DNA of 50,118 bases from Deltaproteobacteria bacterium (GTDB lineage: Bacteria; Desulfobacterota; Desulfobacteria; Desulfobacterales; UBA11574), in NCBI GenBank assembly GCA_019308685.1, contig JAFDHQ010000003.1:1-50118 (forward strand), written 5' to 3'. The position numbers were made by a program, and so were the translations under genes. This document shows positions 11,858-48,654 of this stretch, one piece after another. Every line of letters starts with the position of its first letter. The stretch's first letter is position 1. The notes under the pieces were generated by a model. It was not told the origin of the DNA. It worked only from the letters and a program-made list of their open reading frames with translations, and did not search any database.

Positions 11858-13933
11858 TCACAAAGGGGCTAACGGCAGGCTCATCTTGAAAGTACTTCCT
11901 TTGCCGGGCTTGCTTTCCACTTCTATGGTGCCATTATGCCGAGTAATAATGCCATATACCACCGACAAACCAAGGCCCACACCTTTTCCCTCTTCTTTGG
12001 TTGTAAAAAAAGGATCAAAAATTTTTTCCTTGTCTTCCTCGGTAATGCCGCAACCCGTATCGGAAACCATAACGTCTAAAAATCTATCATTCCCTGCTTT
12101 TCTGTTGGCCGTTACCGTCAGGGTGCCGCCATCAAGCATAGCGTCTGAAGCATTGTACATGAGATTTAATAGGGCCTGTTGAATCTGCTGAAAATCGCAT
12201 TGAACGTTGGGCAGATTCGGCGCAATGTTTTTTCTATGCTGAATATCTTTAATTTCCAAATCATGGGCAATAAGAACAAGAGTCCTATCAATAATGTCTG
12301 TAATGCGGGTGCTTTTAATTTTGATTTCAGACTGGCGGGAAAAGGCCAAAAGGTTTTTCACGATTTCGCCGCACCTGGCAGTTTCCGATTCCATGGTGAG
12401 CAAATATCGGGAAATGTCCTCAAGTCTTTCGGGAGAAAATTTATTCCGATCTTTAAGTTTAATCATTAAACGGATATAAGTAAGAACTGCCGCCAAAGGA
12501 TTGTTTATCTCATGAGCAATAGTAGCGGCCAATTTGCCCAAAGAGGCCAGTTTTTCTGTCTGTACAATCTGTTCTTGGGCATCTTTGAGATCCTCATAGG
12601 CCCTCTTTATATTTTCATATAAATTTGCATTGTCCACGGCAACGCCGATCTGGTTGCCGATAGCGGTCAAGAATTCAATATGCTCGGTTGTAAGCTCAAC
12701 CGGGTAATGGCTGCTGACGCACATGACCCCCATCATCTTCCCTTTGTTTGACAGCGGTATATAAGCGGTTGTATGCAGGCCCTCTTCGATCATGAAATCG
12801 ACATAGGGATCTTGGGATCGCAAATAGTTGTCCACCAATCTTGTTTCACCGTCAAGTAGGGTCTGACCCAAAAGTCCATCCCCGGGTTTACGATTTTTCA
12901 TAAAGGGTTTGGCTATTAATTGAGGTGAAAGCCCTTTATGCGCCACCAGTTTGAGGATCTTTTGTTTATCGTCTATCAAATAAATCCTGACACTGTCAGA
13001 CTCCAGCACCTCGAGAGTTTTTTCGATAGTGCTACTGATTATCTCATCGAGATTCAAACTGCTGCTAACGGTTTTAGAGATGGAATTTAAAATATCCAGC
13101 CGGATATTCCGCTTCTCGATTTGCTGTTGTGACATTTTTCTCTTGGTAATGTCTCTGATAATCAGCACATAGCCGGTAATCTTACCGGTTACATCCACCG
13201 TTACATTCGATGTAATCAACGCATAAAATTCTGAATCATTTTTACCCTTAAGACGGGTTTCAAACTCCACCACGAAACCCTCCTGGGCGACTCTTTTCTG
13301 GAGCTCAATGAAATCCTGTTTCTCTACAAAGAGGTTGGCAGTAGATTCTCGTGCCAAAACATCTTTTTGGGTCTTATATCCCAATATTTGAACCCCTGCC
13401 TGGTTAACCTCAACGATCCTTCCATGGGAGTTGGTGAGAATGATCGCATCACGGGAGCGTTCAAATATGGTTCGATATTTCTCTTCGGATTTTTGCAACT
13501 CTTCCAGACGATTGGCCAGCATCTCTTCCAGGTTGTCTACCAAATTGTCAATATTTTCCTGAATGTGCTGCCTTTTCGTAATGTCCGTCGCTCTTTCCAG
13601 GACATAAACGATCTCGCCCCGTTCGTTCTTGACCGGAATCGTTCTAACCAGCATATTGGCAACTCTGCCGCCCTTCATTATTACATTTTCTACATTCCAG
13701 TGTCCCCGGCCATCCCGATAGGTCTTTTCCACCAGACATTCTTCACATTTTTCCTCTCTGTTTTTCCATACCCTGTAACAGAACTCATTGGATTGCATAC
13801 CGAATTCATTTTTAAAAAGCTCGTTGGCCATTATGATCTGATAATTGCGGTTGATAGCGACGACATAATCCGTAGCGCTATCAATAAGTGTTCTATAATA
13901 TTTATGTTCTTGTAAAAACTCTTCAGTTTTCAT
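11858..13933 (-). CDS. Soluble PAS-PAS-GAF sensor histidine kinase
   Basis: H-box AHEINNPL, N-box NLMYNASDA, DTGCGI, FFTTK, GVGLGL. No evident TM helix. First PAS has C-x10-C-x2-C. Confidence 0.95.
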   Translation of the reverse strand: MKTEEFLQEHKYYRTLIDSATDYVVAINRNYQIIMANELFKNEFGMQSNEFCYRVWKNREEKCEECLVEKTYRDGRGHWNVENVIMKGGRVANMLVRTIPVKNERGEIVYVLERATDITKRQHIQENIDNLVDNLEEMLANRLEELQKSEEKYRTIFERSRDAIILTNSHGRIVEVNQAGVQILGYKTQKDVLARESTANLFVEKQDFIELQKRVAQEGFVVEFETRLKGKNDSEFYALITSNVTVDVTGKITGYVLIIRDITKRKMSQQQIEKRNIRLDILNSISKTVSSSLNLDEIISSTIEKTLEVLESDSVRIYLIDDKQKILKLVAHKGLSPQLIAKPFMKNRKPGDGLLGQTLLDGETRLVDNYLRSQDPYVDFMIEEGLHTTAYIPLSNKGKMMGVMCVSSHYPVELTTEHIEFLTAIGNQIGVAVDNANLYENIKRAYEDLKDAQEQIVQTEKLASLGKLAATIAHEINNPLAAVLTYIRLMIKLKDRNKFSPERLEDISRYLLTMESETARCGEIVKNLLAFSRQSEIKIKSTRITDIIDRTLVLIAHDLEIKDIQHRKNIAPNLPNVQCDFQQIQQALLNLMYNASDAMLDGGTLTVTANRKAGNDRFLDVMVSDTGCGITEEDKEKIFDPFFTTKEEGKGVGLGLSVVYGIITRHNGTIEVESKPGKGSTFKMSLPLAPL

Positions 13934-17395: not shown

Positions 17396-17400
17396 AATTT

Positions 17401-18234: not shown

Positions 18235-18869
18235 TAAGAGATCTCTCCGCGAGTCTGAAAATAAGCTTTTTGAATTTCCTTGACCGCCTTGGACTTAGGC
18301 GCGGATAATTTTAACCTTCCTTTACGCAACAACGTCATGGCCAACTGAAGCTCTTGTTTAAAGGTTCCGTTCTTTATCTTTGCATGCAGAATATCCGGCT
18401 TTGAATAATATGCTCTCATCAATCGAAATTCGTTTACTCTTCCGGACTTGATGAGTTCTTCCAGAAAGGTATGATGAAATACGGCAAGGCTTTTTTCCTT
18501 GGGAGTTATGGATGAACGGGCCGCCATCATGCGCAAATGATTGATAATTTCCGCCACATCCACCTCGTTGGGACAATATGTGGTACACATTTCACAGGAT
18601 AAACACAGCCAGATGGTTGAGGATTTTAATAGTCTTATGCGCCATCCCAACTGAACATAGCGAATGATCTGGTGAGGCTTGATATCCATGAAACCACTGA
18701 TAGGGCAGGCATTGGTACAGCGTTCGCATTGATAGCATGCGGATACATTGACACCGGTTTCTCCTTGAATTCTGTTTAGAAAATAATCTCCCCGGTCCCC
18801 GATGAATTCTCTTTGCTCGCAGGAATCATATTCCGTTGCTGTCTCCGGATCTGAAATGCTATTATGCAT
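18234..18869 (-). CDS. hdrC: Heterodisulfide reductase subunit C
   Basis: CYQCERCTNACP, IWLCLSCEMCTTYCP. ATG 18869 after AAGGA; stop overlaps the hdrB start. Confidence 0.9.
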   Translation of the reverse strand: MHNSISDPETATEYDSCEQREFIGDRGDYFLNRIQGETGVNVSACYQCERCTNACPISGFMDIKPHQIIRYVQLGWRIRLLKSSTIWLCLSCEMCTTYCPNEVDVAEIINHLRMMAARSSITPKEKSLAVFHHTFLEELIKSGRVNEFRLMRAYYSKPDILHAKIKNGTFKQELQLAMTLLRKGRLKLSAPKSKAVKEIQKAYFQTRGEIS

Positions 18870-19053
18870 CTTATTTGTCCTTTTAAAATTGTGGTGAATC
18901 CTTAAAAGGTTGCTTTTCAAGCTAACTATTTAAAATTTTATTGAAAATATATGAGACAAAATGGTATGTGATGTCAATAAAAAATAATAGATAGTTTATC
19001 TCTTTTTAAAAATTGAAACGCTCATCTTAGGTCTTTGATTCAAAGGAAATATC

Positions 19054-19747: not shown

Positions 19748-22700
19748 ATGTCCATCAGGGTAGGTTTTTATGTCTGCCATTGCGGGATCAATATCGCAGG
19801 CAAAGTTCGGGTTGAGGAGGTGGCCGACTTTGCCCGAAAGCTGAAAAATGTGGTGATCGCCCGGGACTATAAGTTTATGTGTTCGGACCCGGGCCAGGAG
19901 ATGATTGAAAAGGACATTAGGGAATTTAACCTTAACCGGGTGGTGGTAGCCTCTTGCTCACCCAGACTGCATGAAAAGACCTTTCAAAGTGCCTGCCGCC
20001 GGGCCGCTCTTAATCCTTATTTTTTCCAGATGGCCTCTGTTCGCGAACAAGTGTCCTGGGTCACCGAGGATGAAGATGAAGCCACCCAGAAAGCGAAAAC
20101 ACTGGCGGCGGCGGCGATCAACCGGGTCAATTACCATGAGAGACTTGATGATCGTGAGGCAGTGGTACATCCCGATATCATGGTCGTGGGTGGCGGTATT
20201 TCGGGCATGCAGGCTGCTTTAGACATCGGCAATGCCGGGCATAAAGTATATCTGGTGGAAAAATCGACGACCATTGGCGGGCACATGCTTCAATTCGATA
20301 AGACATTTCCCACGCTCGACTGTGCCGCCTGTATCGGAACCCCAAAAATGGTTGACGTGGTCCAAAATCCAAACATCGAGTTGATCTCATACAGCGAAGT
20401 AACGGAGGTGTCGGGATTCATTGGTAACTACACCGTCAAAATCCGTCGTAAGCCGCGATATGTAAAGGAAGGTGTCTGTACGGGATGTGGGGAATGTGCG
20501 AATGTCTGTCCGGTGTCAGTCCCGAGTGAGTGGGATGAGGGGCTGGGTCATCGCGCAGCCATTTATAGGGCATTCCCACAGGCCGTACCCATTACCTTCT
20601 GTATAGATAAAAAAGATCGGGCCCCTTGTGCGATCGCTTGTCCGGCGGGCATCAATGTCCAGGGCTATGTGCAACTCATCAGCCAAGGCAAGTACCGGGA
20701 AGCAACCCGGTTAATTATGGAGCGACTGCCCCTTCCGGGGGTACTTGGACGAGTCTGCCCGCATCCTTGTGAATCTCAATGCCGGAGGTTGGAGGTGGAT
20801 GAGGCCATTGCCATCAGGGATTTAAAGCGCTTTGCCGCAGATCATACAAACCTGACAGAACTCGAACCGCCGGAAATTCAGGAATGTTCGGAGAAGGTAG
20901 CAGTGGTCGGCTCAGGTCCGTCCGGGCTGACCGTAGCATACTACCTGCGGTTAAAGGGCTATCAGGTAACTATTTATGAGGCGCTTGACGTCTTGGGCGG
21001 AATGCTTCGGGTGGGAATTCCGGATTTTCGTCTCCCTTCACAAGTTCTTGACCATGAGATCGATTATATTCTCCGCCTGGGTGTTAAGACGCGAACCGGA
21101 GTCCGGTTTGGATCTGATCTTACACTTAACGATTTGAAACAAGAGGGTTTCTCCGCTGTGTTTCTCGGAATCGGAGCTCATGATTCCCTGGATATGCACA
21201 TTCCCGGTGAGAAGGACACGCAAGGAGTTATGGATGCAGTTCGTTTTTTAAGGCAAGTAAATTTGGGGGATAAAACCTGCCCCGGCAGACAAGTTGTCGT
21301 GGTTGGCGGCGGAAATGTGGCCATTGATACGGCACGGGCGGCAAAGCGCCTGGGCGCCCGGGAAGTTACTGTGGTTTATCGCCGCTCGGAACGGGAAATG
21401 CCCGCCTATGCTGAAGAGATTGAAGGTGCTAAAAATGAAGAAATTCGTTTTTTCTTTCTCACCGCTCCGGTCAAAATTCTTGAAAAACAGGGTAAGGTTG
21501 ACGGCTTTGAATGTATCCGTACCAAACTGGGGCCACCGGATGCCAGCGGGCGCCGTCGCCCATTGCCGGTGGCAGGTTCCGAATTCGTGATTCCCTGTGA
21601 TGCGGTGATTCCGGCCATTGGCCAGAAAACCCATGCGCCCTGGGCCGACCGGGAGCCCGACCTTATATGGTCTCCGAGAAACACCTTGAAGGTAAACCTC
21701 CGGACAATGCAAACCAGTATTCCCTACGTGTTTGCCGGAGGCGATGCGGTCATGGGTCCGGCAACGGTGATAGAGGCCGTAGCTGCCGGTCACAAGGCTG
21801 TTGAGGCAATCCATCGCTATATTAACGGCGAAGATCTGGACCTTTATGCAAAACAGGTTGAAGTCCGGGAACAACCGGGCCGCGATTGGCAGGAAATTCC
21901 GGATGGGCTTTACCGGAAATCCCGGGCACATCCACAGCATCTAGACCCAAAGCTGAGTGCAACGTCCTTTGACGAAGTGGACCTTGGTCTTTCAGAAAGC
22001 GAGGCACAACGAGAAGCCAGGCGCTGCCTGAATTGCGGTCTCTGCTGTGAATGTATGGAATGCGTCCGGGTTTGTGAGGCAAATGCCATAGACCACCGTA
22101 TGAAGGAAAAAGAATTAGAGGTAAAGGTTGGGAGCATTATCATCGCCACCGGATACGACACCATAGATCCCACGCCCATGAAGCAGTTTGGATACGGCAA
22201 ATACCCAAATGTCTTTACCGCCCTTGAATTCGAGCGTCTCAGCAATGCGACCGGTCCCACCGGCGGTGAGATCCTTATCAGAGACCAAAACGGGGAACTC
22301 ACCCGAATTCCAAAAAGGGTGGCCATTCTCCACTGCATCGGCAGCCGGGATGTAAATTATCATGAATACTGCTCCCGGGTTTGCTGTATGTACGCCCTCA
22401 AGTATGCCCATCTGATCCATGAAAAAGTGGGCCACGATGCTCAAATTTTTAATTTTTACATTGACATGCGTTGCTTTGGCAAAGGTTATGAAGAGTTTTA
22501 CGAAAGGTGTCAGCGAGAAGGAACCCATTTCATCAGGGGCAAGGTGGCGGAGATTACCGATCAGGCGATCAAACCCGAAGAGCACGGCAAACTCATCACC
22601 ATTGCAGAAGACACTCTCCTGGGACGGAGCATACGGATTCCGGTGGATATGGTAATCCTGTGCAATGCGATTCAGGCCCGAAGCGATGCTCAAGAGGTTG

Positions 22701-23158
22701 GCAGGATTTTTGGAGTCAACCAGGGTGCAGACGGTTTTTTTCTGGAGGAACACCCCAAACTGGGTCCTCTGGACACTGCTACGGACGGAGTTTTTCTGGC
22801 CGGGGTCTGTCAGGGCCCCAAAGATATTCCGGATTCGGTTTGCCAGGCATCCGGCGCGGCTGTCAAAGCCCTGGCATTAGCTACTCGGGGCAAAGTGGAG
22901 ATTGCTCCGATCATATCGTGGATCGACCCGGACGTGTGCGCGGGATGCCAGACCTGTATTGATCTTTGTCCATATTCGGCTATAGAATATAACGTTCGCA
23001 AAGGCATCTCGGTGGTCAATGAGGCACTTTGCAAAGGGTGTGGGAGTTGTGCCGGATTTTGTCCCAGCGGTGCGGCACAGGTCAAACATTTCAATGAAAA
23101 ACAGATTTTTGCAGAACTCGAAGGAATCATTGATTCATTGAATTCAGTAGGAATTTAA
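19748..23158 (+). CDS. hdrA: HdrA (methanogen-like domain order) with inserted GltD/NfnB-like NAD(P)H module (HdrL-type)
   Basis: N-terminal VCHCG..MCS..SCSP, GGGISG, FDKTFPTLDCAAC, APCAIACP/GRVCPHPCE, GSGPSG, GGGNVA, YRR, HCIGSRD, CSRVCCMYALK, C-terminal ferredoxin. Confidence 0.93.
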   Translation: MSIRVGFYVCHCGINIAGKVRVEEVADFARKLKNVVIARDYKFMCSDPGQEMIEKDIREFNLNRVVVASCSPRLHEKTFQSACRRAALNPYFFQMASVREQVSWVTEDEDEATQKAKTLAAAAINRVNYHERLDDREAVVHPDIMVVGGGISGMQAALDIGNAGHKVYLVEKSTTIGGHMLQFDKTFPTLDCAACIGTPKMVDVVQNPNIELISYSEVTEVSGFIGNYTVKIRRKPRYVKEGVCTGCGECANVCPVSVPSEWDEGLGHRAAIYRAFPQAVPITFCIDKKDRAPCAIACPAGINVQGYVQLISQGKYREATRLIMERLPLPGVLGRVCPHPCESQCRRLEVDEAIAIRDLKRFAADHTNLTELEPPEIQECSEKVAVVGSGPSGLTVAYYLRLKGYQVTIYEALDVLGGMLRVGIPDFRLPSQVLDHEIDYILRLGVKTRTGVRFGSDLTLNDLKQEGFSAVFLGIGAHDSLDMHIPGEKDTQGVMDAVRFLRQVNLGDKTCPGRQVVVVGGGNVAIDTARAAKRLGAREVTVVYRRSEREMPAYAEEIEGAKNEEIRFFFLTAPVKILEKQGKVDGFECIRTKLGPPDASGRRRPLPVAGSEFVIPCDAVIPAIGQKTHAPWADREPDLIWSPRNTLKVNLRTMQTSIPYVFAGGDAVMGPATVIEAVAAGHKAVEAIHRYINGEDLDLYAKQVEVREQPGRDWQEIPDGLYRKSRAHPQHLDPKLSATSFDEVDLGLSESEAQREARRCLNCGLCCECMECVRVCEANAIDHRMKEKELEVKVGSIIIATGYDTIDPTPMKQFGYGKYPNVFTALEFERLSNATGPTGGEILIRDQNGELTRIPKRVAILHCIGSRDVNYHEYCSRVCCMYALKYAHLIHEKVGHDAQIFNFYIDMRCFGKGYEEFYERCQREGTHFIRGKVAEITDQAIKPEEHGKLITIAEDTLLGRSIRIPVDMVILCNAIQARSDAQEVGRIFGVNQGADGFFLEEHPKLGPLDTATDGVFLAGVCQGPKDIPDSVCQASGAAVKALALATRGKVEIAPIISWIDPDVCAGCQTCIDLCPYSAIEYNVRKGISVVNEALCKGCGSCAGFCPSGAAQVKHFNEKQIFAELEGIIDSLNSVGI

Positions 23159-23206: not shown

Positions 23207-23352
23207 GAGAGACCTTTGAAAAACGTTCAATTTTGTTCAAGTTCAAGGAAGACGAAGATTTTAACCACAGGCATACATTGAGTATGTCGAGGATTAAAAT
23301 CTGAGTCTGACGCAGAAATTGGGCAAAAGGGGACGTTTTGCAAAGGTCTCTA
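23207..23352. repeat. ERIC-like/MITE repeat, subfamily B
   Basis: Inverted ends AGAGACCTTTGAAAAACGT / ACGTTTTGCAAAGGTCTCT. Core AACCACAGGCATAC-ATTGA-GTATGTCGAGGATT. Abuts the mvhD RBS. Confidence 0.8.
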
Positions 23353-23363
23353 GGAGGGAGATC

Positions 23364-23786
23364 ATGGAAGGTTTTGAACCGACAATCATCGCTTTTGTGT
23401 GTAACTGGTGTACATATACCGCCGCAGATCTGGCCGGAACCTCAAGATTGGGTTATCCCGCCAACGTAAGATTGATTCGGGTGATGTGCACCGGCATGGT
23501 TGACCCCAAATATGTGATCAAGGCCTTTCTTGAAGGGGCCGATGCGGTTCTTGTGAGTGGGTGCCATCCCGGAGATTGCCATTACATTAACGGAAATTAC
23601 AAAGCGAGAAGACGGATCAAGCTTCTCAAAGAAATCCTTCCCCAATTCGGCTTCGACGATGAACGGCTCCGCTTGACCTGGATCGGGGCCAGCGATGGAA
23701 TCCAGTTTGCCGAGACCATTCGTAAAATGGTAACACAGATGAAGATCCTGGGACCCAACGAGGCCAAATTAAAGATTGTAATATAA
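23364..23786 (+). CDS. mvhD: MvhD/FlxD-family [2Fe-2S] subunit, all-Cys
   Basis: GGAGG RBS, ATG 23364; CNWC, RVMCTG, GCHPGDCHY. Confidence 0.93.
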   Translation: MEGFEPTIIAFVCNWCTYTAADLAGTSRLGYPANVRLIRVMCTGMVDPKYVIKAFLEGADAVLVSGCHPGDCHYINGNYKARRRIKLLKEILPQFGFDDERLRLTWIGASDGIQFAETIRKMVTQMKILGPNEAKLKIVI

Positions 23787-23827: not shown

Positions 23828-24970
23828 GTGAAAACAGCGAAAATCAAAGTAAAAGACGGAGACCTTTTGGCAACTCTGCGAGAGTTTTTTCGATCCATCC
23901 TCCAGTTGGAGGATATCAGTGCGATTCTGGTTCCACAACATCTCCCCATGAAGAATGTGGTAATGCCGACTCTGGTGACCGATCCTGAACAACTCAACGG
24001 CATCGATCCTCTGGCACCGGCGTTTCCCATCAATTCAGCCAAAATTGTTTCCCGGCTCACTCGTAAACCCATGGGACAAAAAGTGGCGGTTGTGTTGCGC
24101 CCCTGTGAGATAAGGGCATTTATCGAATTGGTGAAACTCAAGCAAGGCCGGACTGAAGAAGTGGTTCTGGTGGGAATCGACTGCCTGGGAGCATACAAGA
24201 ACCTCGATTATACTCAGATTGTCGGGGAACAAGAAACAGAATTCACTTCAAGATTTTACCGGAATGTCTTATCCGGGAAAGAAATCGCCGAAAACGGGTT
24301 TGACCTGAACCCGGCCTGCAAAGCATGCGAACACCCTGTTCCCGATGGTGCAGACATTTTAATCGGACTTTTCGGGGTCGATACAAACCACAGCCTGATG
24401 ATCCAGGCCCGGACTTTAAACGGAGAGGACCTCTATAGAAATCTTAATCTTTCACATGCAGAGGAACCACCGGAACGTACGGCGGCCGTTGCATCGCTGA
24501 TCGCTGAAAGAACCGCCTATCGTGATAAAATGTTTGCAGAAACTTCCGAGGTCACCAACAGCGTAGAGAAACTGAACATTTATCTTGCCAACTGCATAAA
24601 CTGTTACAACTGCAGGGTGGCCTGTCCGGTTTGCTATTGCAAAGAATGTGTTTTTGTTACAGATGTTTTTAACCATGAACCGATTCAGTACCTGCGATGG
24701 GCCAATCGCAAGGGTATCATCAAGATGCCCACCGATACCGTGTTTTATCATATTACCCGGCTGGCACACATGAGTACCGCATGTGTCGGGTGCGGACAGT
24801 GTTCCAATGCCTGTCCCAACAACATTCCGGTAATGGAGTTGTTTCGAACCGTTTCATTTCAAACACAAAAAGGGTTCGAATACGAACCGGGGAAGAGTAT
24901 TGAGGATGAACCTCCCTTGTCGGTGTTTCGGGAAGATGAACTCGCCGATGTTGTCGGAATCGGAAAATAG
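23828..24970 (+). CDS. FdhB/FrhB-family Fe-S protein (F420-hydrogenase/formate dehydrogenase beta-like)
   Basis: RPCEIRA..ELVK..Q, GIDC, ACKAC..P...ADI.IG, CINCYNCRVACPVCYCKEC, HITRLAH..CVGCGQCSNACP. GTG start. Confidence 0.8.
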   Translation: MKTAKIKVKDGDLLATLREFFRSILQLEDISAILVPQHLPMKNVVMPTLVTDPEQLNGIDPLAPAFPINSAKIVSRLTRKPMGQKVAVVLRPCEIRAFIELVKLKQGRTEEVVLVGIDCLGAYKNLDYTQIVGEQETEFTSRFYRNVLSGKEIAENGFDLNPACKACEHPVPDGADILIGLFGVDTNHSLMIQARTLNGEDLYRNLNLSHAEEPPERTAAVASLIAERTAYRDKMFAETSEVTNSVEKLNIYLANCINCYNCRVACPVCYCKECVFVTDVFNHEPIQYLRWANRKGIIKMPTDTVFYHITRLAHMSTACVGCGQCSNACPNNIPVMELFRTVSFQTQKGFEYEPGKSIEDEPPLSVFREDELADVVGIGK

Positions 24971-24987: not shown

Positions 24988-27900
24988 ATGAAGAAAAAAA
25001 TCGGTAAAGCATTGGTGGTGGGATCCGGAATCAGCGGTATCCGTGCGGCCCTGGATCTGGCGGAATTTGGCTATGGTGTCATTCTCATCGACCGGTTACC
25101 GCACATTGGAGGAATTTTAAGCCAGCTCGATTATCAGTTTCCGACCGACCGCTGCGGTATGTGCAAAATGCTTCCTCTGGTGGATCGAGATGCATCGTCC
25201 CAGTATTGCCTTCGCAAAGGACTTTTTCACGAAAACATCCAAATCCGTCTTTCCACAGAACTTACCTCTGTGGAAGGCGAACCAGGCCATTTTCAGGTGA
25301 CATTGCGTCAGAAGCCGAGACTTGTTGATCCTGTTCTGTGTGTGGGATGCGGTGAGTGTGTGAAAGTCTGCCCGGTGGAAGTTCCGGACTCTTTCCACGC
25401 CGGTATGACCACTCGAAAGGCCATCTACCTTCCGGTTCCACATGCTATTCCCAATCCGTACGTAATAGATATGGAGGCCTGTACCCGGTGCGGGGACTGT
25501 GAAGCGGTTTGTCCCACGGACGCCATCAAGGTCTCCGAGCACATACACAGAGACTTTCGGGTCCTGGTGGTGGACGACGAATTGATCGTCCGCGATTCAA
25601 TCAAGGAATGGCTGGAAGATGAAGGTTTTACCGTCAATGTAGCTGCATCCGGCCCGGAAGCCCTGGACATTCTGTCAAAACAATCCTATCAACTCATGCT
25701 CACGGATATTAAAATGCCGGGAATGGGCGGTGTGGAACTCCTTCAAAAAGCCAAGGAGGACTTTCCCGATATCTGCGTGATTATGATGACCGCCTATGCC
25801 ACGGTAGAAACTGCTGTGGAGGCCATGAAGATCGGAGCATCCGACTATCTCATAAAACCCTTTGAACCCGATAATCTTATTCAAATGGTTTTTCAAAAAT
25901 ACCAGGAGCACGAAGCCGCCAGTGAAGCACCCATAGAAGTCGGGGCTCTGGTTCTTTGTGGAGGTACAGCCTATTTTAATCCTTCCGAAGGCGAGAACAC
26001 CTTCGGGTATGGTGTTTATCCGAATGTGGTAACGAGTCTGGATTTTGAAAGAATTTTAAGTAGCGCCGCCCTGCAACAGGGTCGTCTGGTCCGGCCTTCC
26101 GACAGCAAACCCCTTCGCAAGGTGGCCTGGTTCCAGTGTGTGGGATCCAGAGACATTAAGATCGACGCCGACTTTTGCTCCTTTGTCTGCTGTATGCACG
26201 CAATTAAAGAAGCCCTGGTGGCCAAGGAAAGGGCTGAAGATGAACTGGAAGCGGCTATTTTTTACATGGATATGCGCACGTTTGGAAAGTCGTTTCAGCG
26301 CTACCGCTGCCAGGCGGAAACTAAGCACGGCGTTCGATTTGAAAGGGGGCGTGTCCATTCCATAATCCAGGATGAAGCCAGTGGAGATCTTATTGTCGGT
26401 CATGTAGATTATACCGGAACCCATAAAGAAGAGCACTTCGATATGGTTGTACTCTCCGTGGGCCAACGGCCGGCGCCAGGCACGGCTGAGCTGGCTGAAA
26501 TGGTTGGAATCTCTCTCAATCAGTGGGGATTCTGTAAGGCCGAACCTTTTTCAGAGACGCTGACCAGTCAGGAAGGAATCCTGTTGGGAGGTTCCTTTTC
26601 AGGTCTCAAGGACATCAATGATTCTGTAATCCAGGCTTCTGCTGCTGCTTTGGCTGCATCCCTTGTGATTCATACCACCGGTGGCAGCCTTCTTCTGGAA
26701 CCTAAATCCCATGAGCCTTTTCTCGACATTTCACAAGAACCGCCCAGAGTTATGGTGCTTGTCTGTACCTGCGGCGACACCCTTTCCAAGCTTTTCGATC
26801 CGCAGCAACTTGCCCGGCGCCTTAAGACTGATCCGGGTGTGGACCGGGTTTTCTTTCTTGAACAGACCTGTACCGCTGCGGGCTGGGAAAACCTTGTTGA
26901 ATTGGTGGAAAAACACAAACCCAACCGTATTCTGATCGGGGCCTGCATTCCCTATCTGTACTCGCGAAAAACCAGGGAACTGGGACGACGTGTGGGTTTG
27001 GTGCCCGGCCTCATTCATGTGGTCAATTTAAGGCTCATGGATCAACTGTCAAAACTCAAGGATGAAACTCCGTCAGCAGATGAAATAACAGCAATTATCC
27101 ATGAGCTATCGTCTATTTTGGGAATGGGTCTTGCCAGACTTAAATGGGCTGACCCTACTCCTGCGCCCAGGGTGAAGATTTTTCAGCAGGCTCTGGTGGT
27201 GGGCGGGGGAATCGCCGGAATGACCGCCGCCCTTGCCATCGCAGATCACGGCTTTCAAGTAGATCTGGTGGAAAAAGAAGAGATGTTGGGGGGTAATCTT
27301 ACTTGGTTGGAGCGAGATCTGGAAGGAAACATAACAGAGATTATTTTGGAGAAAACACGGCATAATTTGGAAAAACATCCCTTGATCCGGGTCCACACCC
27401 GAAGCCGGGTGCTCGGCTCCTATGGTCAGGTGGGGCGTTTTTATACCACTATTGAGGACAAAGCAAAAGGGACTTTCACCCTGGAACACGGCGTGACCAT
27501 TCTTGCAACTGGAGGAATGGAAGCGACAACCACCTCATATAACTACGACAAAAGCGAGGCCATTATCACCCAAAAGGAGCTGGAGCAAAAAATAAATGAC
27601 AATAAACTCCATCCGAGCCAACTCGAATCAGTGGTCATGATTCAGTGTGTGGATTCCAGAGAGGAGCCAAGGAATTACTGCAGCCGAATATGCTGTGATA
27701 CCTCTTTAAAAGATGCTCTATGTCTCAAGAGGCAAAATCCTGATATTGACATCTACATTTTTTATCGGGACATTATGGCCTATGGATTTGTCGAGTCCTA
27801 TTACACCCAAGCCCGCAAGGCAGGTGTGATCTTTATCCCCTATGATGTGGCTGAAAAACCCCGGGTAACGGTCACGGACGGATCTATTCAGGTAACCGCC

Positions 27901-28428
27901 TCTGAACCAATTATCGGTCAAAAAATACGGCTGGATGCGGATCTTGTTGTCCTCGCCACCGGCATTGTTCCCACACTTCCAAAGGACCTTGCAGAAGCTT
28001 TCGGCGTGACTGTCGATCAGGACGGTTTCTTTCAGGAGGCGGAGACGAAATGGAGACCCGTGGATTCGATCAAGGAAGGTGTTTTTGCCTGCGGTCTGGC
28101 ACATTCTCCCCGCAATATTGCAGAATCCATAGCCACTGCCAGAGCGGCGTCCCAGCGCGCTTTGAGGATTCTCTGCCACGAACACATGCCTGCCGGCAAA
28201 GTCGTGGCGGAGATTCATCACAGCCTATGCAGTTTATGTGAACAATGCATCGACGCCTGCCCCTATGGTGCCCGTACCTTAGATCTTGATCTGGAAAAGG
28301 TGATCATCAATCCCGCTATGTGCCAGGGATGCGGATCATGCGCCACGGTTTGTCCCAACAGCGCGTCGACGCTCGTTGGGTTTTCAGACCGGCAAATGCT
28401 CGATGTCATTGATTCTGCATTTGAATAA
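24988..28428 (+). CDS. hdrA: Tandem HdrA-like flavoprotein with an internal response-regulator receiver domain (25549-25917)
   Basis: GSGISG, FPTDRCGMC and two ferredoxin motifs come first. The receiver LVVDDE...TDIKMPG...MTAY...KPF follows. The protein then resumes with QCVGSRD, CSFVCCMHAIK, a second GGGIAG, CSRICC and a C-terminal ferredoxin, all in one ORF. Confidence 0.93.
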   Translation: MKKKIGKALVVGSGISGIRAALDLAEFGYGVILIDRLPHIGGILSQLDYQFPTDRCGMCKMLPLVDRDASSQYCLRKGLFHENIQIRLSTELTSVEGEPGHFQVTLRQKPRLVDPVLCVGCGECVKVCPVEVPDSFHAGMTTRKAIYLPVPHAIPNPYVIDMEACTRCGDCEAVCPTDAIKVSEHIHRDFRVLVVDDELIVRDSIKEWLEDEGFTVNVAASGPEALDILSKQSYQLMLTDIKMPGMGGVELLQKAKEDFPDICVIMMTAYATVETAVEAMKIGASDYLIKPFEPDNLIQMVFQKYQEHEAASEAPIEVGALVLCGGTAYFNPSEGENTFGYGVYPNVVTSLDFERILSSAALQQGRLVRPSDSKPLRKVAWFQCVGSRDIKIDADFCSFVCCMHAIKEALVAKERAEDELEAAIFYMDMRTFGKSFQRYRCQAETKHGVRFERGRVHSIIQDEASGDLIVGHVDYTGTHKEEHFDMVVLSVGQRPAPGTAELAEMVGISLNQWGFCKAEPFSETLTSQEGILLGGSFSGLKDINDSVIQASAAALAASLVIHTTGGSLLLEPKSHEPFLDISQEPPRVMVLVCTCGDTLSKLFDPQQLARRLKTDPGVDRVFFLEQTCTAAGWENLVELVEKHKPNRILIGACIPYLYSRKTRELGRRVGLVPGLIHVVNLRLMDQLSKLKDETPSADEITAIIHELSSILGMGLARLKWADPTPAPRVKIFQQALVVGGGIAGMTAALAIADHGFQVDLVEKEEMLGGNLTWLERDLEGNITEIILEKTRHNLEKHPLIRVHTRSRVLGSYGQVGRFYTTIEDKAKGTFTLEHGVTILATGGMEATTTSYNYDKSEAIITQKELEQKINDNKLHPSQLESVVMIQCVDSREEPRNYCSRICCDTSLKDALCLKRQNPDIDIYIFYRDIMAYGFVESYYTQARKAGVIFIPYDVAEKPRVTVTDGSIQVTASEPIIGQKIRLDADLVVLATGIVPTLPKDLAEAFGVTVDQDGFFQEAETKWRPVDSIKEGVFACGLAHSPRNIAESIATARAASQRALRILCHEHMPAGKVVAEIHHSLCSLCEQCIDACPYGARTLDLDLEKVIINPAMCQGCGSCATVCPNSASTLVGFSDRQMLDVIDSAFE

Positions 28429-28559: not shown

Positions 28560-29141
28560 ATGAACCCTTTGGAAAAATTAGAAAGCGAACAAAAATCTGA
28601 AACTGCACCTGCTCTGGTTATTGATTCACTGGCATCCATCCGGGATATGGTCAGCGCCTGCATCCAGTGCGGTACGTGTACGGGTTCTTGTCCCAATGCC
28701 TTTGCCATGGATCTCACTCCCCGTCAGCTGTGGTACAATGTCCTTAGAGGAGAAAAAGAAACAATTTTTCATTCAAAGACCTTCTCACTATGTTCCGTCT
28801 GCTATTACTGTACACTACGATGCCCACGGGGTCTTCCGCTTACCGAGGCGATGAGTGCACTCAAGCAGATAGCCGCAAAGGAGAATCTGGCGCCCTATAA
28901 GAAGAGCACCCGTTTTTACAAAAGTTTTTTGGAGAGCGTATATCGTCATGGCCGGGTCAGGGAGATGGAGTTGATGACACTCTATTTTATTTCCATGAAA
29001 AACCCCTTTCTGCCCCTTCAGTTTGCGCCCTTGGGAATAAAACTCATGGGCAAAGGAAAGATTTCTTTCGAGATTCCTTCAAAAGGAAACGGTGCGTTAA
29101 AAGCGATCTTTCGTAAGGTGGAAGAGTTAGAGCAGAATTAA
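28560..29141 (+). CDS. hdrC: Heterodisulfide reductase subunit C
   Basis: CIQCGTCTGSCP, CSVCYYCTLRCPRG. Confidence 0.9.
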   Translation: MNPLEKLESEQKSETAPALVIDSLASIRDMVSACIQCGTCTGSCPNAFAMDLTPRQLWYNVLRGEKETIFHSKTFSLCSVCYYCTLRCPRGLPLTEAMSALKQIAAKENLAPYKKSTRFYKSFLESVYRHGRVREMELMTLYFISMKNPFLPLQFAPLGIKLMGKGKISFEIPSKGNGALKAIFRKVEELEQN

Positions 29142-29219
29142 TATAATAATTTTCGCCAAGTTGAGCAGCGAAGCCGCGTTCTATAAAATCGTAATACGAT
29201 TTTATTGTGGAAGGCAAAT

Positions 29220-30089
29220 ATGAAATACCTATATTATCCGGGATGTTCTCTTGAGGGAACGGCGTTAGAATACAACTCCTCCACCAGAACCTTCATGCAG
29301 GAACTGGGAGCAGAACTCATTGAACTTGAAGACTGGACCTGTTGCGGTGCCAGTGCTGCCGAGGCCACAAGCCACCTTCTTTCTCTGGCGCTTCCGGCAC
29401 TCGTTCTCGCAAAGGCCGAGAACATGGATGGAGTTAAGGAAATTCTTGTTCCGTGCAGCGCGTGCTATCTAAACCTGAAAAAGGTCGAGGAAAAAATACG
29501 AAAGGATCGGGAGCTTCTTGACCAAATCAACATCATATTAGCCGAAGAAAAGCTTAACCTGCGCGGTCAAATGAAGGTCCGGCATCTCCTTGACGTGGTG
29601 GCAAATGACGTGGGTTCTAAAAAGATTTTTGCCCGCGTGAAAAAGCCGTTAACCGATCTTATCATCGCTCCCTATTATGGCTGCCAGTGCCTTCGCCCGT
29701 ACTCTATTTTTGACGATCCCGAAGATCCCTGCTCTATGGAAGGGATTATTAAAGCCTCGGGGGCAAATATCCATCAATGGAATATGGGGGGAAGATGCTG
29801 TGGCGCATCTCATATGACCACCAAGCCAGAGGTAGCCCTGGAACTCGTGGCCGCTATATTGAAAATGGCCCGGGGAGCAGATGCCATTGTTACGGTTTGT
29901 CCCATGTGCCAGATGAACCTGGAGGCATACCAGAAAAAAATATCAGGGATGTGCAAAGAGGATCTGAGCATGCCCATCCTTTATCTTCCTCAGTTTCTGG
30001 GGCTGGCCCTTGGCCTCTCGGAACAGGATTTGCGATTGGACATGAATCTATCCTTTACCAAAGCCTTCCGAAACAAAGTACTGTCATGA
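29220..30089 (+). CDS. hdrB: Heterodisulfide reductase subunit B
   Basis: MKYLYYPGCS, WTCCG, CSAC, YYGC, RCCG, CPMCQMNL. Confidence 0.92.
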   Translation: MKYLYYPGCSLEGTALEYNSSTRTFMQELGAELIELEDWTCCGASAAEATSHLLSLALPALVLAKAENMDGVKEILVPCSACYLNLKKVEEKIRKDRELLDQINIILAEEKLNLRGQMKVRHLLDVVANDVGSKKIFARVKKPLTDLIIAPYYGCQCLRPYSIFDDPEDPCSMEGIIKASGANIHQWNMGGRCCGASHMTTKPEVALELVAAILKMARGADAIVTVCPMCQMNLEAYQKKISGMCKEDLSMPILYLPQFLGLALGLSEQDLRLDMNLSFTKAFRNKVLS

Positions 30090-30152: not shown

Positions 30153-31472
30153 TTACACGGATGCTCGTCGGGAAATGGGTAGCCGGTTTATACTGATGGT
30201 TGGACATGCCGCGGAAAGGGCAACCCGAAGGGCATTTGAACCGAGCAAAGCTTTTTCCGGATCAATCTCTTTGGAATGATGGGCCATAATGATTAAGTCG
30301 GCATTCCTCCACCTGGCGAATTTGAGGATCTCGACATATGGCCTCCCCTCCCATGATTCAAAAGAATATTCTACAACTCCTTCTAATTCCGAGCCATATT
30401 TGTTTTTCATTCTTTCCTTGGCGTCATTGATACTGTTTTCTATATTCGCTTGATCTATCATCAAAACATTCTCATCATGGATAACAGGCACCACGTGAAA
30501 GAGGTGGAGTTTGGCCTGGTATCGGCGGGTCATCCTGGAGGCAAAATCAAAGGCATGTTGAGCCCGTTCAGAAAAGTCCGTAGCCAGGACAATATTAGAA
30601 AACGTCACCTTTACCGATCGAAGAGCTTCAAAATCCTGGTATACCTGAAAGACCTTATCCACAAGGATCTCAGGGTCAAATGGTTTGAGGAGATAGTCAA
30701 GGGCTCCAATCTTCAAGGCTTCTATGGCCGTTTCTACGGTGGCGTAGGCGGTCATCATGATTACGGTAAGATCGGGAAAGGATTTATGGGCCCTTTTAAG
30801 GAGTTCAACACCGTCCATTCCCGGCATTTTGATATCCGTAAGCATCAGGTGATACGGTTGGGTCGACAGTTTATCCAGAGCCTCCGGACCGGATGCCGCC
30901 ATATCCACGGTATAGCCCTCATCTTCAAGCCATTCTTTGATTGAATCGCGAACGACGAGTTCATCGTCCACCACCAGAATTCGAAAATCCCGGCGCTCAC
31001 CAACAGCATCCTTGGTCCAGATCTTTGGAACCTGCTTGGGAACGATCATCACGGGACAGCGTGCCCGTTGGCTCACTTTTTGGAGGCTGCTGCCGGCCAT
31101 CCCCCATCTTGTCGGCAGATCTTCATCGGTTTCTTTTTCATGGGAACCCATGACAATCAGGTCAACGACTTTATTTCTGGCAAAACGCAAGATTTCGCTA
31201 TGAGGCATTCCTGCAACAACTTCGATGGTATAATTTTGAACCCCAAATTTTTCGATCTTTTCTTGATAGTAATGAGCTATTTCTTTTTTTGTTTCCTCTA
31301 CTTTGCCGGAAGGCAAAAGATGTCTCATTCCTCCCCATCCATTTGAGTCTATGCCGTAGGCGTGGAAAATATACAATTCGGCATTGCCTTGCTTGGCCAG
31401 AGCAAAAGCCATATCCGCAGCACGTTTACTGGCTTCTGTGGGAGATGCAGCGAAAAGAACTTTTTTAAACAT
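30153..31472 (-). CDS. USP-receiver-USP fusion (universal stress protein with internal REC domain, 30624-30992)
   Basis: USP1 MFKKVLFA...DLIVMGSH...GS..QKV...CPVMIV; REC LVVDDE/TDIKMP/MTAY/KPF; USP2 FSNIVLATDFS...DLIIMAHH...LLGS...CPTI. Confidence 0.9.
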   Translation of the reverse strand: MFKKVLFAASPTEASKRAADMAFALAKQGNAELYIFHAYGIDSNGWGGMRHLLPSGKVEETKKEIAHYYQEKIEKFGVQNYTIEVVAGMPHSEILRFARNKVVDLIVMGSHEKETDEDLPTRWGMAGSSLQKVSQRARCPVMIVPKQVPKIWTKDAVGERRDFRILVVDDELVVRDSIKEWLEDEGYTVDMAASGPEALDKLSTQPYHLMLTDIKMPGMDGVELLKRAHKSFPDLTVIMMTAYATVETAIEALKIGALDYLLKPFDPEILVDKVFQVYQDFEALRSVKVTFSNIVLATDFSERAQHAFDFASRMTRRYQAKLHLFHVVPVIHDENVLMIDQANIENSINDAKERMKNKYGSELEGVVEYSFESWEGRPYVEILKFARWRNADLIIMAHHSKEIDPEKALLGSNALRVALSAACPTISINRLPISRRASV

Positions 31473-31640: not shown

Positions 31641-33896
31641 CTAAGCTTTTCTGTATTGCCGCTTGGGTTGATCCTCCCTCTTCAGCGACGGAAGACGAAT
31701 CGTAAAAACGGTCCCTTCCCCCAGCTTGCTGTCAACAGTGATAGATCCCTTATAGCGGTCGATGATACCGTAAACCATGGAAAGTCCGAGTCCAAGCCCC
31801 TTCCCTTCTGTTTTTGTGGAATAGAACGGATCAAAAATCTGGTGAATGTCTTCCTCAGCAATACCGCATCCGGTATCTTCTATTTTTATTTCGACCATCT
31901 CCGTTATCGGATCAAATGAACTTACCATGGTCAGGGTGCCGCCATCCGACATGGCGTCAATAGCATTAAAAATGAGATTGATAACGCATTGCTGGGTTTG
32001 ATTAAAGTCCCCCAAAACCTTTGGAATATTCGGATCAAAATCGGTTTTAATCTGGATATTCTGAAGCATGAGTTTGTGCTGGCTGAGCAGAATGCATTTT
32101 TCCAGAAGCTCGTTAATACTCATTTCGCTGAGTTCCAATTCAGATTTGCGTGAGAACGCCAGCAGATTGGAAACGATCTTGGAGCAGCGGCTGGTCTCAC
32201 TCTCAACTAGGGTGAGATGTTTTTGAAACTTTTCTATTCTTTTTTGGTCCAAATCCCCCCTTTTAATGATTTTGAGCATCAGGCGAATATAGTTCAAGAT
32301 TCCTGATAGGGGATTGTTGAGCTCATGGACGACGCTGGCGGACAGCCTGCCCAGAGAAATCATTTTGTGCTCGTGAATCAGTCGGGTTTGATCGGCAAAC
32401 TGCTGTTCCATTCTTCTGATTTCTCTTAAATCCCTGAAAAATCCCACCATGCCGATCTCTTCGTCTTGGTCAAACATAACCGTAGCCGAAAGCTGGACCG
32501 GGATCTTATCACCGGTTTTATTAATCATATATGTTTCAAAAAGAATAAGCCGGTTTTTCCCTCCGTATTCATCGGAAACCAGTTCTTTCCTGACCTCTTC
32601 CAACATCGCCGGCGGGAAAAGATCGTTAAAAGACATTTTCATGATCATTTCATATGCGGAATAACCCAGCAGTTTCTCGGCTTGCTGATTGAAAACGACA
32701 ATGGAACCATCTCTGTCCGAGGCGATGATGGCATCTATGGAACTCTGAATCAGGTTGTGTTCAAACTCAAAGAGTGTTTGGAGCTCTTGTTGCAGGCGCT
32801 TGACCTCGCGCATATCTTTAAAATAGCCTACCGTGGCAACTTCCTGACCTTCTTCATACAGCAATGTTGCGGAGAGCAGAATGGGTACGATCTGCCCATA
32901 CTTATCGACAATTTCCACTTTATAGTTAAGCAAACGGCCGCCCCCCCCGTGTTCAGGCCCGTAAATCATTCTCTTAATTTTTTTAGCCTCGCCCTCTTTG
33001 TAAAACCGGGTAACGTGAATTTTGGAAACTTCCTCCTGGGTGTAACCGAAAACGTTTTCAGCGCCTTTGTTAAAAATGATGATGTTGCCTTTACGGTCAT
33101 TGGCAATGATCGGGTCTATTGAGGTCTGGATAAGGTTGGTTTGAAAGTCATGCGCTTTTTTAAGCTTTCGTTCCATCTCCTTTCTCTGGGTTTGATCCAC
33201 ACAGATCCCTTCATACCCGATAACCTTCCCCTCTCGATCATAGCGGGCGTGGGCGGTTCGCAATACCGAGATCACTCTTCCATCCTTGCGCTTCAAATCA
33301 ACTTCATAGTCAATGACGTGACCGTCTCGTTCAATCAAATCCATGTATTTTCGGCGATCTTCAGGTTTCAGATAAAGGTCTCTGGCGATATCTACCTTAA
33401 GAAACTCCTCTTTGCTCGTGTATCCCAACATCTCCATAAGAGCCTGATTGGCATCAATAAACTTACCTTCCTTGCTGCTTATATGCACACCGACACGCAC
33501 ATGTTCAAACAATTTTTTGTAGTCTTCTATGGAGGCGCGAAGCATTTTTTCGCGCTCTTTTGTCTCTGTGATATCCTGATATATACAAAAATGCGATATG
33601 GTTCCTTTATCGGTTTGCAAAGGTAATTCGAAAATCTCGAAAGTTTTGTCGATGTGCGGAAAGTAGTTTTCCCAACGAAGGGTTTCTCCCTTAAAGACTT
33701 CTTTTGCCCTGCACCAGGAGCAGATATCGTCTTGATTCGCAATCACCTGATAACATTTCTTTCCAATGCCTTCTCCAAAGACGTTAATACTGGCCTTGTT
33801 CATAAATTGTACAGTGTAATCATCCCCGATGATATAAACGCCACACCCCATGGCATCTAAAATTGAAGCAAGCCGTTGGGTCTCTTGATCAATCAT
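31641..33896 (-). CDS. Soluble sensor histidine kinase with four PAS domains
   Basis: VHELNNPL, NLIFNAIDA, DTGCGI, FYSTK, GLGLGL; four PAS-like repeats; first PAS has C-x10-C-x2-C. Confidence 0.95.
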   Translation of the reverse strand: MIDQETQRLASILDAMGCGVYIIGDDYTVQFMNKASINVFGEGIGKKCYQVIANQDDICSWCRAKEVFKGETLRWENYFPHIDKTFEIFELPLQTDKGTISHFCIYQDITETKEREKMLRASIEDYKKLFEHVRVGVHISSKEGKFIDANQALMEMLGYTSKEEFLKVDIARDLYLKPEDRRKYMDLIERDGHVIDYEVDLKRKDGRVISVLRTAHARYDREGKVIGYEGICVDQTQRKEMERKLKKAHDFQTNLIQTSIDPIIANDRKGNIIIFNKGAENVFGYTQEEVSKIHVTRFYKEGEAKKIKRMIYGPEHGGGGRLLNYKVEIVDKYGQIVPILLSATLLYEEGQEVATVGYFKDMREVKRLQQELQTLFEFEHNLIQSSIDAIIASDRDGSIVVFNQQAEKLLGYSAYEMIMKMSFNDLFPPAMLEEVRKELVSDEYGGKNRLILFETYMINKTGDKIPVQLSATVMFDQDEEIGMVGFFRDLREIRRMEQQFADQTRLIHEHKMISLGRLSASVVHELNNPLSGILNYIRLMLKIIKRGDLDQKRIEKFQKHLTLVESETSRCSKIVSNLLAFSRKSELELSEMSINELLEKCILLSQHKLMLQNIQIKTDFDPNIPKVLGDFNQTQQCVINLIFNAIDAMSDGGTLTMVSSFDPITEMVEIKIEDTGCGIAEEDIHQIFDPFYSTKTEGKGLGLGLSMVYGIIDRYKGSITVDSKLGEGTVFTIRLPSLKREDQPKRQYRKA

Positions 33897-35756: not shown

Positions 35757-35771
35757 GTTATATTCTCCTTT

Positions 35772-35809: not shown

Positions 35810-35840
35810 TTCATGCAAAATTCAGGGATTAAATTGTTTC

Positions 35841-47012: not shown

Positions 47013-48654
<1,642 letters not shown>

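Follow-up and report, generated by a model that had tools for sequence, protein, structure and literature searches.

The window analysed here is a stretch of 50,118 nucleotides from a member of the Desulfobacterales (Deltaproteobacteria bacterium, assembly GCA_019308685.1, contig JAFDHQ010000003.1). The gene hdrA(REC) at 24,988-28,428 encodes a tandem HdrA-like flavoprotein in which a response-regulator receiver domain (REC) is nested within the first of two flavin modules. The receiver has kept its phosphotransfer residues and is shared by a large family of orthologues. Judged by the genes around it, the protein belongs to a predicted cytoplasmic Hdr-like complex composed of HdrL, MvhD, an FdhB-like subunit, the tandem HdrA, HdrC and HdrB. 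The balance of evidence tips slightly towards soluble PAS histidine kinases phosphorylating Asp240 of the receiver, which would tune electron flow on the ferredoxin side of this complex.

Anatomy of the tandem HdrA and its receiver

The protein is encoded by a single open reading frame with an ATG start and is 1146 amino acids long, according to the list of open reading frames and the translation. The original prediction described it as a single HdrA with a built-in receiver. Both sequence strings that it quoted, CEAVCPTDAIKVSEHIH and IEVGALVLCGG, are found in the translation, but the description as a single HdrA has to be corrected because Pfam places the Rossmann start of a flavin adenine dinucleotide (FAD)-binding domain, with its GxGxxG motif, at residues 7-41 and again at residues 735-772. 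The chain aligns to the solved HdrA structure 5odc_A in four pieces (E 1.7e-118 in a sequence search of solved structures), with residues 7-182 matching 145-310, 316-509 matching 319-511, 584-757 matching 2-168 and 965-1144 matching 467-649. It is therefore a tandem HdrA, in which module 1 has the inserted ferredoxin domain without the terminal domains and module 2 has the N-terminal-type and the C-terminal ferredoxin domains. An inserted ferredoxin domain was not detected in module 2, with zero Fer4 matches in Pfam between residues 182 and 1074.

The three accessory domains of HdrA are thus present in one copy each (the inserted ferredoxin domain at residues 106-185, the N-terminal domain at about 586-730 and the C-terminal ferredoxin domain at 1066-1146), and both the FAD motif GxGxxG and the [4Fe-4S] motif CxGSRD...CSxxCC occur in both modules. 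In an alignment of 66 rows (A1) the eight cysteines of the inserted ferredoxin domain are invariant (C118, C121, C124, C128, C165, C168, C171 and C175). The same is true for G12, G14, G17, C384, G386, S387, R388, C397, S398, C401, C402 and K407 in module 1 and for G739, G741, G744, C887, R891, C898, S899, C902 and C903 in module 2. The ER and CCMxxxK signatures, previously said to be kept, are indeed invariant in this alignment (E354, R355, C401, C402, M403 and K407). An AlphaFold2 model computed with A1 has a mean predicted local distance difference test score (pLDDT) of 85.7 and a predicted template modelling score of 0.85, and Foldseek ranks HdrA chains first for this model: 8rvy_A, 8rvu_A, 5odc_A and 7bkb_A, with E 1e-45 to 1e-40. 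These methanogen enzymes, from Methanothermobacter marburgensis (8rvy/8rvu), Methanothermococcus thermolithotrophicus (5odc) and Methanospirillum hungatei (7bkb), are the closest known relatives.

The Response_reg family (PF00072) matches residues 192-301 along profile positions 1-110 of 111 and scores 112 bits (cut-off 30.2; E 2.1e-32), which is far beyond chance and agrees with the in-frame insertion originally placed at 25,549-25,917 (residues 188-310). The receiver takes the place of an 8-residue linker (residues 311-318 of 5odc_A) that joins the inserted ferredoxin domain to the flavin fold. In a paralogue encoded at 14,336-17,395 of the window (1019 amino acids, 39% identical) residues 186-315 are absent and there are five residues instead. 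The phosphotransfer residues are present as first described, i.e. the acidic pair D196/D197, the phospho-acceptor D240 with its GAT codon read directly as codon 240, T268 and K290-P291-F292. Together with A269 and Y270 they are invariant in 150 out of 150 orthologues, which are 43-94% identical to the query. This alignment consists of the query, 33 proteins from genomic loci and 116 database proteins longer than 1100 amino acids; four truncated proteins of 1100 amino acids or fewer (P0015, P0069, P0071 and P0097) were excluded. Mean identity to the query in the 150 rows is 73% for the receiver (minimum 56%), 66% for the adjoining flavin part and 55% for the inter-module domain. The receiver is thus among the best-conserved parts of the protein and is under purifying selection, and its most conserved surface is the alpha4-beta5-alpha5 stretch.

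The best matches of the receiver are regulators of the FixJ, AtoC and NtrC types among the NCBIfam models, and NtrC1, DctD, FleR and Spo0F among solved structures. Its modelled secondary structure follows the (beta-alpha)5 pattern at residues 191-311, with strands at 191-195, 215-219, 236-240, 263-268 and 286-289, helices at 199-211, 222-231, 248-258, 273-282 and 294-311, and mean pLDDT of 77-92 in blocks of ten residues across 191-310. Both connections to the enzyme are short. In the model, helix alpha5 (residues 294-311) stops four residues before the flavin-domain strand at 316-318. At the other end, a less confidently modelled tether at residues 182-190 (block pLDDT 69) leaves about eight residues between the receiver N-terminus and the final strand of the ferredoxin insert.

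Both junctions are confirmed by contigs assembled from other public runs. The X2 contig (4236 nucleotides, record 9) spans 24,988-27,556 with 3 differences and bridges both junctions, the X4 contig (record 17) covers 25,056-25,628 with 0 differences and bridges the first, and the X5 contig (record 27) covers 25,751-26,071 with 1 difference and bridges the second. An assembly chimera or sequencing artefact that joined a response-regulator gene to hdrA is already refuted by these contigs and by independent genomes, as 124 full-length matches in genomes have the same in-frame insertion, and so do 67 of 80 named genome records, including the isolate Desulfosarcina cetonica JCM 12296; the probability of an artefact is practically nil. 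A joint that skips 96 nucleotides in X2 (26,148 to 26,245), seen in one 414-nucleotide contig with a side of 24 letters, is below the reliability guide and was attributed to another organism. The RNA run X18 was rejected as a record of transcription of hdrA(REC): its contigs are only 90-99% alike (9 of 24 at 95-99% and 15 of 24 at 90-95%, one of them inside the REC region at 25,590-25,872) and are taken to come from a relative.

Distribution, operon and kinase neighbourhood

The fusion was assumed to be rare in the original prediction but is in fact a large orthologue family. A word-indexed protein search with residues 100-420 scored 8000 candidates, of which 6077 reached E ≤ 0.001. PF00072 is present in all of the 120 best of these 6077 proteins, which are 64-95% identical to the query and 1129-1174 amino acids long except for four (836-1073 amino acids). 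The matches are named "heterodisulfide reductase subunit A/A2", "response regulator" or "FAD-dependent oxidoreductase" in their sources; the database names are automatic only and the family is widely mis-annotated. A library of 1.84 billion representatives was searched with the same residues and contained 909 proteins at E ≤ 1e-30. Among the best 150 of these 909, 15 representatives of 50%-identity clusters span the ferredoxin insert, the receiver and the flavin re-entry, and 13 of the 15 keep D, D, D, T and K at the key positions. Homologous fusions with a conserved phospho-acceptor Asp, for which a search had been proposed, are therefore abundant, and D240 is present in each of the 150 aligned orthologues.

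Of 301 genomes sampled evenly from the host's class, 145 match at E ≤ 1e-200, covering 67 of 127 genera, and in about 137, by a count from the match table, the match extends across the receiver. The matches are unbroken from residue 8 or earlier to residue 1131 or later in 124 of 148 cases, with 44-78% identity. Across the phylum, 11 of 401 sampled genomes have the junction region: besides the own genome, three belong to the same order and seven to other families. Named genome records were scanned as well and yielded 80 loci, 67 of which cover the whole junction query. The carriers include Desulfosarcina cetonica JCM 12296 and metagenome-assembled genomes labelled Desulfonema limicola, Desulfobacula, Desulfobacter, Desulfotignum, Desulfobacterium, Desulfosarcina, Desulfococcaceae, Desulfatibacillaceae and Syntrophobacter/Syntrophobacteraceae. 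The query match of four genomes from one family (G284, G066, G265 and G246) ends at about residue 822, inside open frames of 1160-1283 amino acids; these genes may encode a variant that has the receiver but differs in its C-terminal half.

The genome of origin (3.26 Mb in 283 contigs, 94.7% complete) has exactly one HdrA with a receiver and at least six further tandem HdrA paralogues, each found as two adjacent pieces without residues 184-313 and several with an in-frame TGA. Single in-frame TGA codons near the N-terminal Cys-rich region were seen in the HdrA paralogues on contigs C182, C192, C178, C198 and C134 and at 5046-5534 of the window, and are compatible with selenocysteine. The receiver-bearing copy has Cys at the position of this TGA. 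Selenocysteine is reported for HdrA/HdrL of Desulfobacterium autotrophicum HRM2 in the available part of its genome paper (PMC2702500).

The operon context originally described is confirmed by Pfam, with mvhD, the FdhB-like gene, hdrC and hdrB adjoining hdrA(REC) (Table 1). Synteny was scored in 20 distant loci with flanks of 8 kb, in which the protein is 43-64% identical. The genes for HdrL (61-73% identity), MvhD and the FdhB-like subunit are upstream of hdrA(REC) in 20 out of 20 loci, and hdrC and hdrB are downstream in 18.

Table 1. Parts of the receiver-bearing HdrA, its operon and the linked signalling genes (positions in the window; aa, amino acid residues).
Feature	Positions	Strand	Basis
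Tandem HdrA-like flavoprotein with nested receiver (P0001)	24988..28428	+	Pfam, structure alignment, AlphaFold2, Foldseek
Module 1, N-terminal part of thioredoxin-reductase-like FAD domain (aa 1-105)	24988..25302	+	GxGxxG aa 12-17; Pyr_redox aa 7-41; 5odc_A from residue 145
Inserted ferredoxin domain, two CxxCxxCxxxCP motifs (aa 106-185)	25303..25542	+	Fer4 aa 113-132, 158-181; 5odc_A to residue 310
Receiver (REC) and linkers (aa 186-315)	25543..25932	+	PF00072; AlphaFold2 (beta-alpha)5; missing from paralogue 14336-17395
GAT codon of predicted phospho-acceptor Asp240	25705..25707	+	Read directly; D in 150/150 orthologues
Module 1, C-terminal FAD part with CxGSRD...CSxxCC cluster motif (aa 316-585)	25933..26742	+	5odc_A 319-511
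Inter-module domain resembling HdrA N-terminal domain (aa 586-730)	26743..27177	+	aa 584-757 against 5odc_A 2-168
Module 2 FAD domain (aa 731-1065)	27178..28182	+	Pyr_redox_2 aa 735-848, NAD_binding_8 aa 737-772
C-terminal di-cluster ferredoxin domain (aa 1066-1146) and stop codon	28183..28428	+	Fer4_10 aa 1076-1123; aa 965-1144 against 5odc_A 467-649
hdrL-type gene, HdrA-like FAD/Fe-S parts and GltD/NfnB-like NAD(P)H module (Fer4_20 and Pyr_redox_2)	19748..23158	+	Pfam
mvhD (FlpD family, [2Fe-2S] electron-transfer subunit)	23319..23786	+	PF02662, E 4e-53
FrhB/FdhB-like flavin/Fe-S subunit (FrhB_FdhB_C-like)	23828..24970	+	PF04432, E 3.5e-8, plus Fer4 families
hdrC-like 2x[4Fe-4S] subunit	28560..29141	+	Fer4_17, Fer4_8
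hdrB, two CCG domains	29205..30089	+	PF02754, two stretches
Usp-REC-Usp protein	30153..31472	-	Usp x2 and Response_reg aa 165-274; convergent to operon
Soluble PAS-PAS-PAS-HisKA-HATPase histidine kinase, candidate cognate kinase	31641..33896	-	Pfam; H-box His524
PAS-GAF-HisKA-HATPase kinase, link to HdrA receiver uncertain	11858..13933	-	Pfam; soluble; H-box His474

The two histidine kinases of the window, counted correctly in the original prediction, have no transmembrane-like segments in a sequence scan. Of the 20 loci, 9 have a homologue of the nearer kinase (37-50% identity in the PAS-HisKA-HATPase half) in the 8-kb flanks, 13 have a second kinase gene downstream of hdrB and in the same orientation, and 15 have one kinase or more within this distance. 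For example, in locus L015 a REC-PAS kinase gene is located directly upstream of hdrL, and the frame of a HAMP-PAS-PAS kinase overlaps the stop codon of hdrB and is followed by genes for a REC-HATPase protein and CheA. The anatomy originally described is right, and the interpretation as a kinase-switched enzyme is partly supported, as the conserved kinase-linked operon favours the idea of kinase control.

Another protein of the window carries a twin of the HdrA receiver. The receiver of Usp-REC-Usp is 69% identical to residues 188-324 of HdrA over 137 amino acids without gaps. The alpha1 helix is the usual kinase-docking element of receivers; it is conserved across the hdrA(REC) family and differs between the two receivers at one conservative position. 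The receiver of the NtrC-type regulator at 10,350-11,702 is 49% identical to the HdrA receiver and has a different alpha1 helix at most positions. Full-length Usp-REC-Usp genes are found in 13 of the 301 class genomes and adjoin the hdrA(REC) operon in six, including the own genome. A phylogenetic tree of 62 receivers, built with a quick method (Shimodaira-Hasegawa-like approximate likelihood ratio test, SH-aLRT, and no bootstrap) and with many inner forks unresolved, has the Usp-REC-Usp receivers inside the radiation of the HdrA receivers, although the value of the joint clade is not strong (SH-aLRT 85). One kinase probably serves both the HdrA receiver and the Usp-REC-Usp receiver.

Predicted phosphorylation control and its alternatives

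In the proposed mechanism a soluble PAS histidine kinase, here the product of 31,641-33,896, would phosphorylate Asp240. In other genomes this role would fall to kinases whose genes immediately precede hdrL or overlap with the hdrB end. The kinase would in addition act on the twin receiver of Usp-REC-Usp. Phosphorylation would rearrange the alpha4-beta5-alpha5 face of the receiver. Because the tethers measure only about four and about eight residues, the change could be passed on both from alpha5 into the flavin strand and from the receiver N-terminus to the ferredoxin domain, so that the inserted Fe-S domain would shift relative to FAD. Low-potential electron flow might in this way be switched or re-routed post-translationally, without new gene expression. 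A more far-reaching version is that a phosphorelay acts on a bifurcating or confurcating Hdr-like complex, that phosphorylated Asp240 moves the ferredoxin-facing Fe-S domain and decides within seconds between production and consumption of low-potential electrons, that this applies to about half of the Desulfobacterales, and that the same kinase co-controls Usp-REC-Usp. This combined version is tentative and falls somewhat short of an even chance.

Several points weigh against the proposed control. The best NCBIfam models for the whole protein are HdrA2 and HdrA, and the equivalog cut-offs are not reached (691.5 against 1100 bits for HdrA2, 539.9 against 1400 for HdrA and 531.1 against 1300 for hdrA_Methbact); the protein is therefore filed as HdrA-like and not as the methanogen enzyme. 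Kinase genes were not detected within 8 kb in 5 of the 20 loci. The lever argument is built on tether lengths and on what is generally known of receiver folds, and the inserted ferredoxin domain as a route to ferredoxin is reportedly a proposal of a 2017 structure paper. According to the available part of a review, the bifurcating FAD and the site that binds ferredoxin are both located in HdrA, but HdrABC homologues alone are insufficient to conclude bifurcation (PMC5861303). The present complex is thus a candidate for bifurcation.

The history of the domain cuts both ways. In a divergent clade the receivers are degenerate, with D, P, D, A, K in P0141 and D, P, D, G, H in P0143, and no Pfam receiver is detected in P0143 at E 1e-6. 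A degenerate insert (T, P, D, A, K) is found in the same operon in a genome of another family (G340, locus L115:9167-12679, 45% identity). A backbone tree was constructed from 66 tandem HdrA proteins with the receiver columns removed, again with a quick method (SH-aLRT only). All 31 receiver-bearing rows are in one clade of 36 rows (SH-aLRT 99), but five receiver-less rows are nested at two places within it, and the degenerate pair and the receiver-less P0166 join the clade in an unresolved three-way fork. This fits one gain of the receiver, at least two later losses and one degeneration. A phosphorylatable receiver is dispensable for the enzyme core, since the divergent clade is degenerate and at least two lineages have lost the domain. 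By this history of gain, losses and degeneration, the receiver is an add-on to a working enzyme, as expected of a regulatory module. In G340, a tandem Usp gene and a gene for a separate receiver come after the operon. The 920-residue protein P0154 was rejected as a carrier: it is 35% identical across the receiver but has no Response_reg in Pfam, and the alignment is a spurious, Rossmann-like one.

Receivers have also been joined to another HdrA-type subunit. In P0135 an HdrL-type HdrA is preceded by three receivers at the N-terminus, which form a clade of their own in the receiver tree (SH-aLRT 98). Among the best 120 clusters listed from P0135, 25 (P0273-P0297; 971-1597 amino acids, most of them 1406-1597) join PF00072 to HdrL-type domains, and most of the remaining ones are receiver-less HdrL of 1135-1137 amino acids with the length and domain set of the window gene at 19,748-23,158. 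The HdrL part of P0293 is 62% identical to that gene. In the class sample the full REC-HdrL is found in one genome only (G264:C95:4393-8664), on a contig other than that of its hdrA(REC) operon. REC-HdrL is an independent fusion, which would suggest that direct kinase control of the complex arose more than once. In P0281 a receiver is combined with a NuoE-like 2Fe-2S domain.

An unlikely alternative is that phosphorylation controls assembly, with the NtrC-type receiver driving two complexes to dimerise, or making a ferredoxin, HdrL, MvhD or the FdhB-like subunit dock and leave. The NtrC/FixJ/AtoC-type matches are in line with this, as the NtrC type often dimerises, and so are the conservation of the alpha4-beta5-alpha5 surface, the single receiver per tandem-HdrA pseudo-dimer and the arrays of receivers on some relatives of the partner HdrL. 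On the other hand, two short tethers suit a lever within the chain at least equally well. Signalling in the reverse direction is more doubtful still. Here the redox state of flavin or Fe-S clusters would alter phosphorylation of the receiver, and the enzyme would serve a branched phosphorelay, with Usp-REC-Usp and hybrid kinases as further members, as a redox-dependent sink for phosphate or as a sensor. The operon is indeed situated amid signalling genes, for instance in locus L015 with its two PAS kinases, REC-HATPase protein and CheA, and the twin receiver would compete for the same kinase. However, the kinases carry PAS or GAF sensor domains of their own, receivers fused to enzymes normally act as inputs, and no precedent was found in the literature.

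Least probable of these biological alternatives, and very improbable in our view, is a structural pseudo-receiver that is never phosphorylated and serves as a spacer or docking platform. The divergent clade has retained the domain in spite of the loss of the acidic pair and Thr, even to the point where Pfam no longer recognises the insert of P0143. Against this stand the five phosphotransfer residues, which are invariant in all 150 orthologues down to 43% identity and kept in 13 of the 15 cluster representatives, a pattern that is difficult to account for unless the site is catalytic. The kinase genes linked to the operon also speak against a pseudo-receiver. Kinase control of electron flow through Asp240 remains the preferred reading.

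Known systems and other genes of the window

Compared with methanogen HdrABC, the neighbouring genes mvhD, hdrC and hdrB are alike. Unlike methanogen HdrA, the protein described here has two FAD modules per chain with single copies of the inserted, N-terminal-type and C-terminal Fe-S domains, and 130 residues of receiver and linkers where the methanogen enzyme has its short linker. The disulfide substrate is presumably other than the heterodisulfide of coenzymes M and B (CoM-S-S-CoB), because the host belongs to a lineage of sulfate reducers.

Locus VIII of D. autotrophicum HRM2 is described with a tandem hdrL/hdrA4, a gene for formate dehydrogenase subunit B and an hdrACB-like operon, and the neighbours listed in its figure include "response regulator" and "histidine kinase" (PMC2702500, Fig. 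4). As far as this paper was available, the gene order is the same as in the present operon and no mention was found of a receiver inside HdrA4. The MetFV-HdrABC-MvhD complex of Moorella thermoacetica has an HdrA that binds two FAD (PMC5861303, available part). This parallels the two FAD modules here, and the window also has a MetF gene with an HdrL-like gene; a receiver is not reported for the Moorella complex in the same part of that source.

Response regulators with enzymatic outputs are well known, for example CheB, PleD/WspR and RpfG. The HdrA receiver shares the canonical fold and phosphotransfer residues with these and with the NtrC and FixJ receivers. It differs in that it is nested in the fold of the output enzyme and not N-terminal, and in that the output is a multi-cluster flavoprotein of energy metabolism; the nested position and this target are the unusual points. 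The REC-HdrL proteins (P0135, P0273-P0297) are similar because their receivers are on another HdrA-type subunit of the same kind of cluster, but each protein carries its one to three receivers at the N-terminus, and these group apart in the receiver tree.

No description of a receiver in HdrA was found in the full-text literature, where coverage of reviews and supplements is incomplete and a prior mention is possible. A preprint from 2024 distinguishes 11 HdrA architectures and, in its available part, does not have a receiver among the named domains (bioRxiv 10.1101/2024.09.26.615249), nor is such a receiver mentioned in the available parts of PMC5109826, PMC10553843, PMC4053972 and PMC11406978. 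The HdrA-REC fusion seems to be widespread yet never studied.

The conservation of the receiver in about half of the sampled class genomes, which belong to globally important sulfate reducers, and in syntrophic relatives gives the predicted control a wide reach. Flavin-based electron bifurcation sets the balance of ferredoxin, NAD(P)H and disulfide carriers in strict anaerobes, and to our knowledge its control is either transcriptional or thermodynamic. If the proposal is true, the complex would be the first bifurcating enzyme known as a post-translational output of two-component signalling. It makes testable the question of whether a sensor kinase can directly switch or re-route such an enzyme. 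Changes of Asp240, or the addition of beryllofluoride (BeF3-), would also offer a natural handle for trapping conformational states of HdrA.

The window is packed with further Hdr-type genes. A second tandem-HdrA/HdrB/HdrC cluster without receiver is encoded at 14,336-18,920 on the minus strand, divergent from the studied operon, and the MetF gene is adjacent to the HdrL-like gene at 1113-6651 (minus strand), whose frame continues upstream through a TGA. An HdrD/DsrK-like protein (Fer4_8 and CCG) with a NarI-like membrane subunit is found at 34,413-36,500 (minus strand). Between the Hdr clusters are the genes of two sigma-54-type (NtrC-family) response regulators, at 6943-8313 (plus) and 10,350-11,702 (minus), and the latter adjoins the PAS-GAF kinase. 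A GcvH-like protein with an N-terminal extension and an M54 archaemetzincin-type peptidase are encoded at 8544-9473 and 9783-10,343 respectively, both on the minus strand, and a RelA/SpoT-domain protein, possibly a small alarmone synthetase, at 42,564-43,703 (minus). The overlapping frames at 47,013-47,942 and 47,881-48,648 (minus) match the C-terminal and N-terminal halves of Cpn60/GroEL, which points to a frameshifted or mis-assembled groEL.

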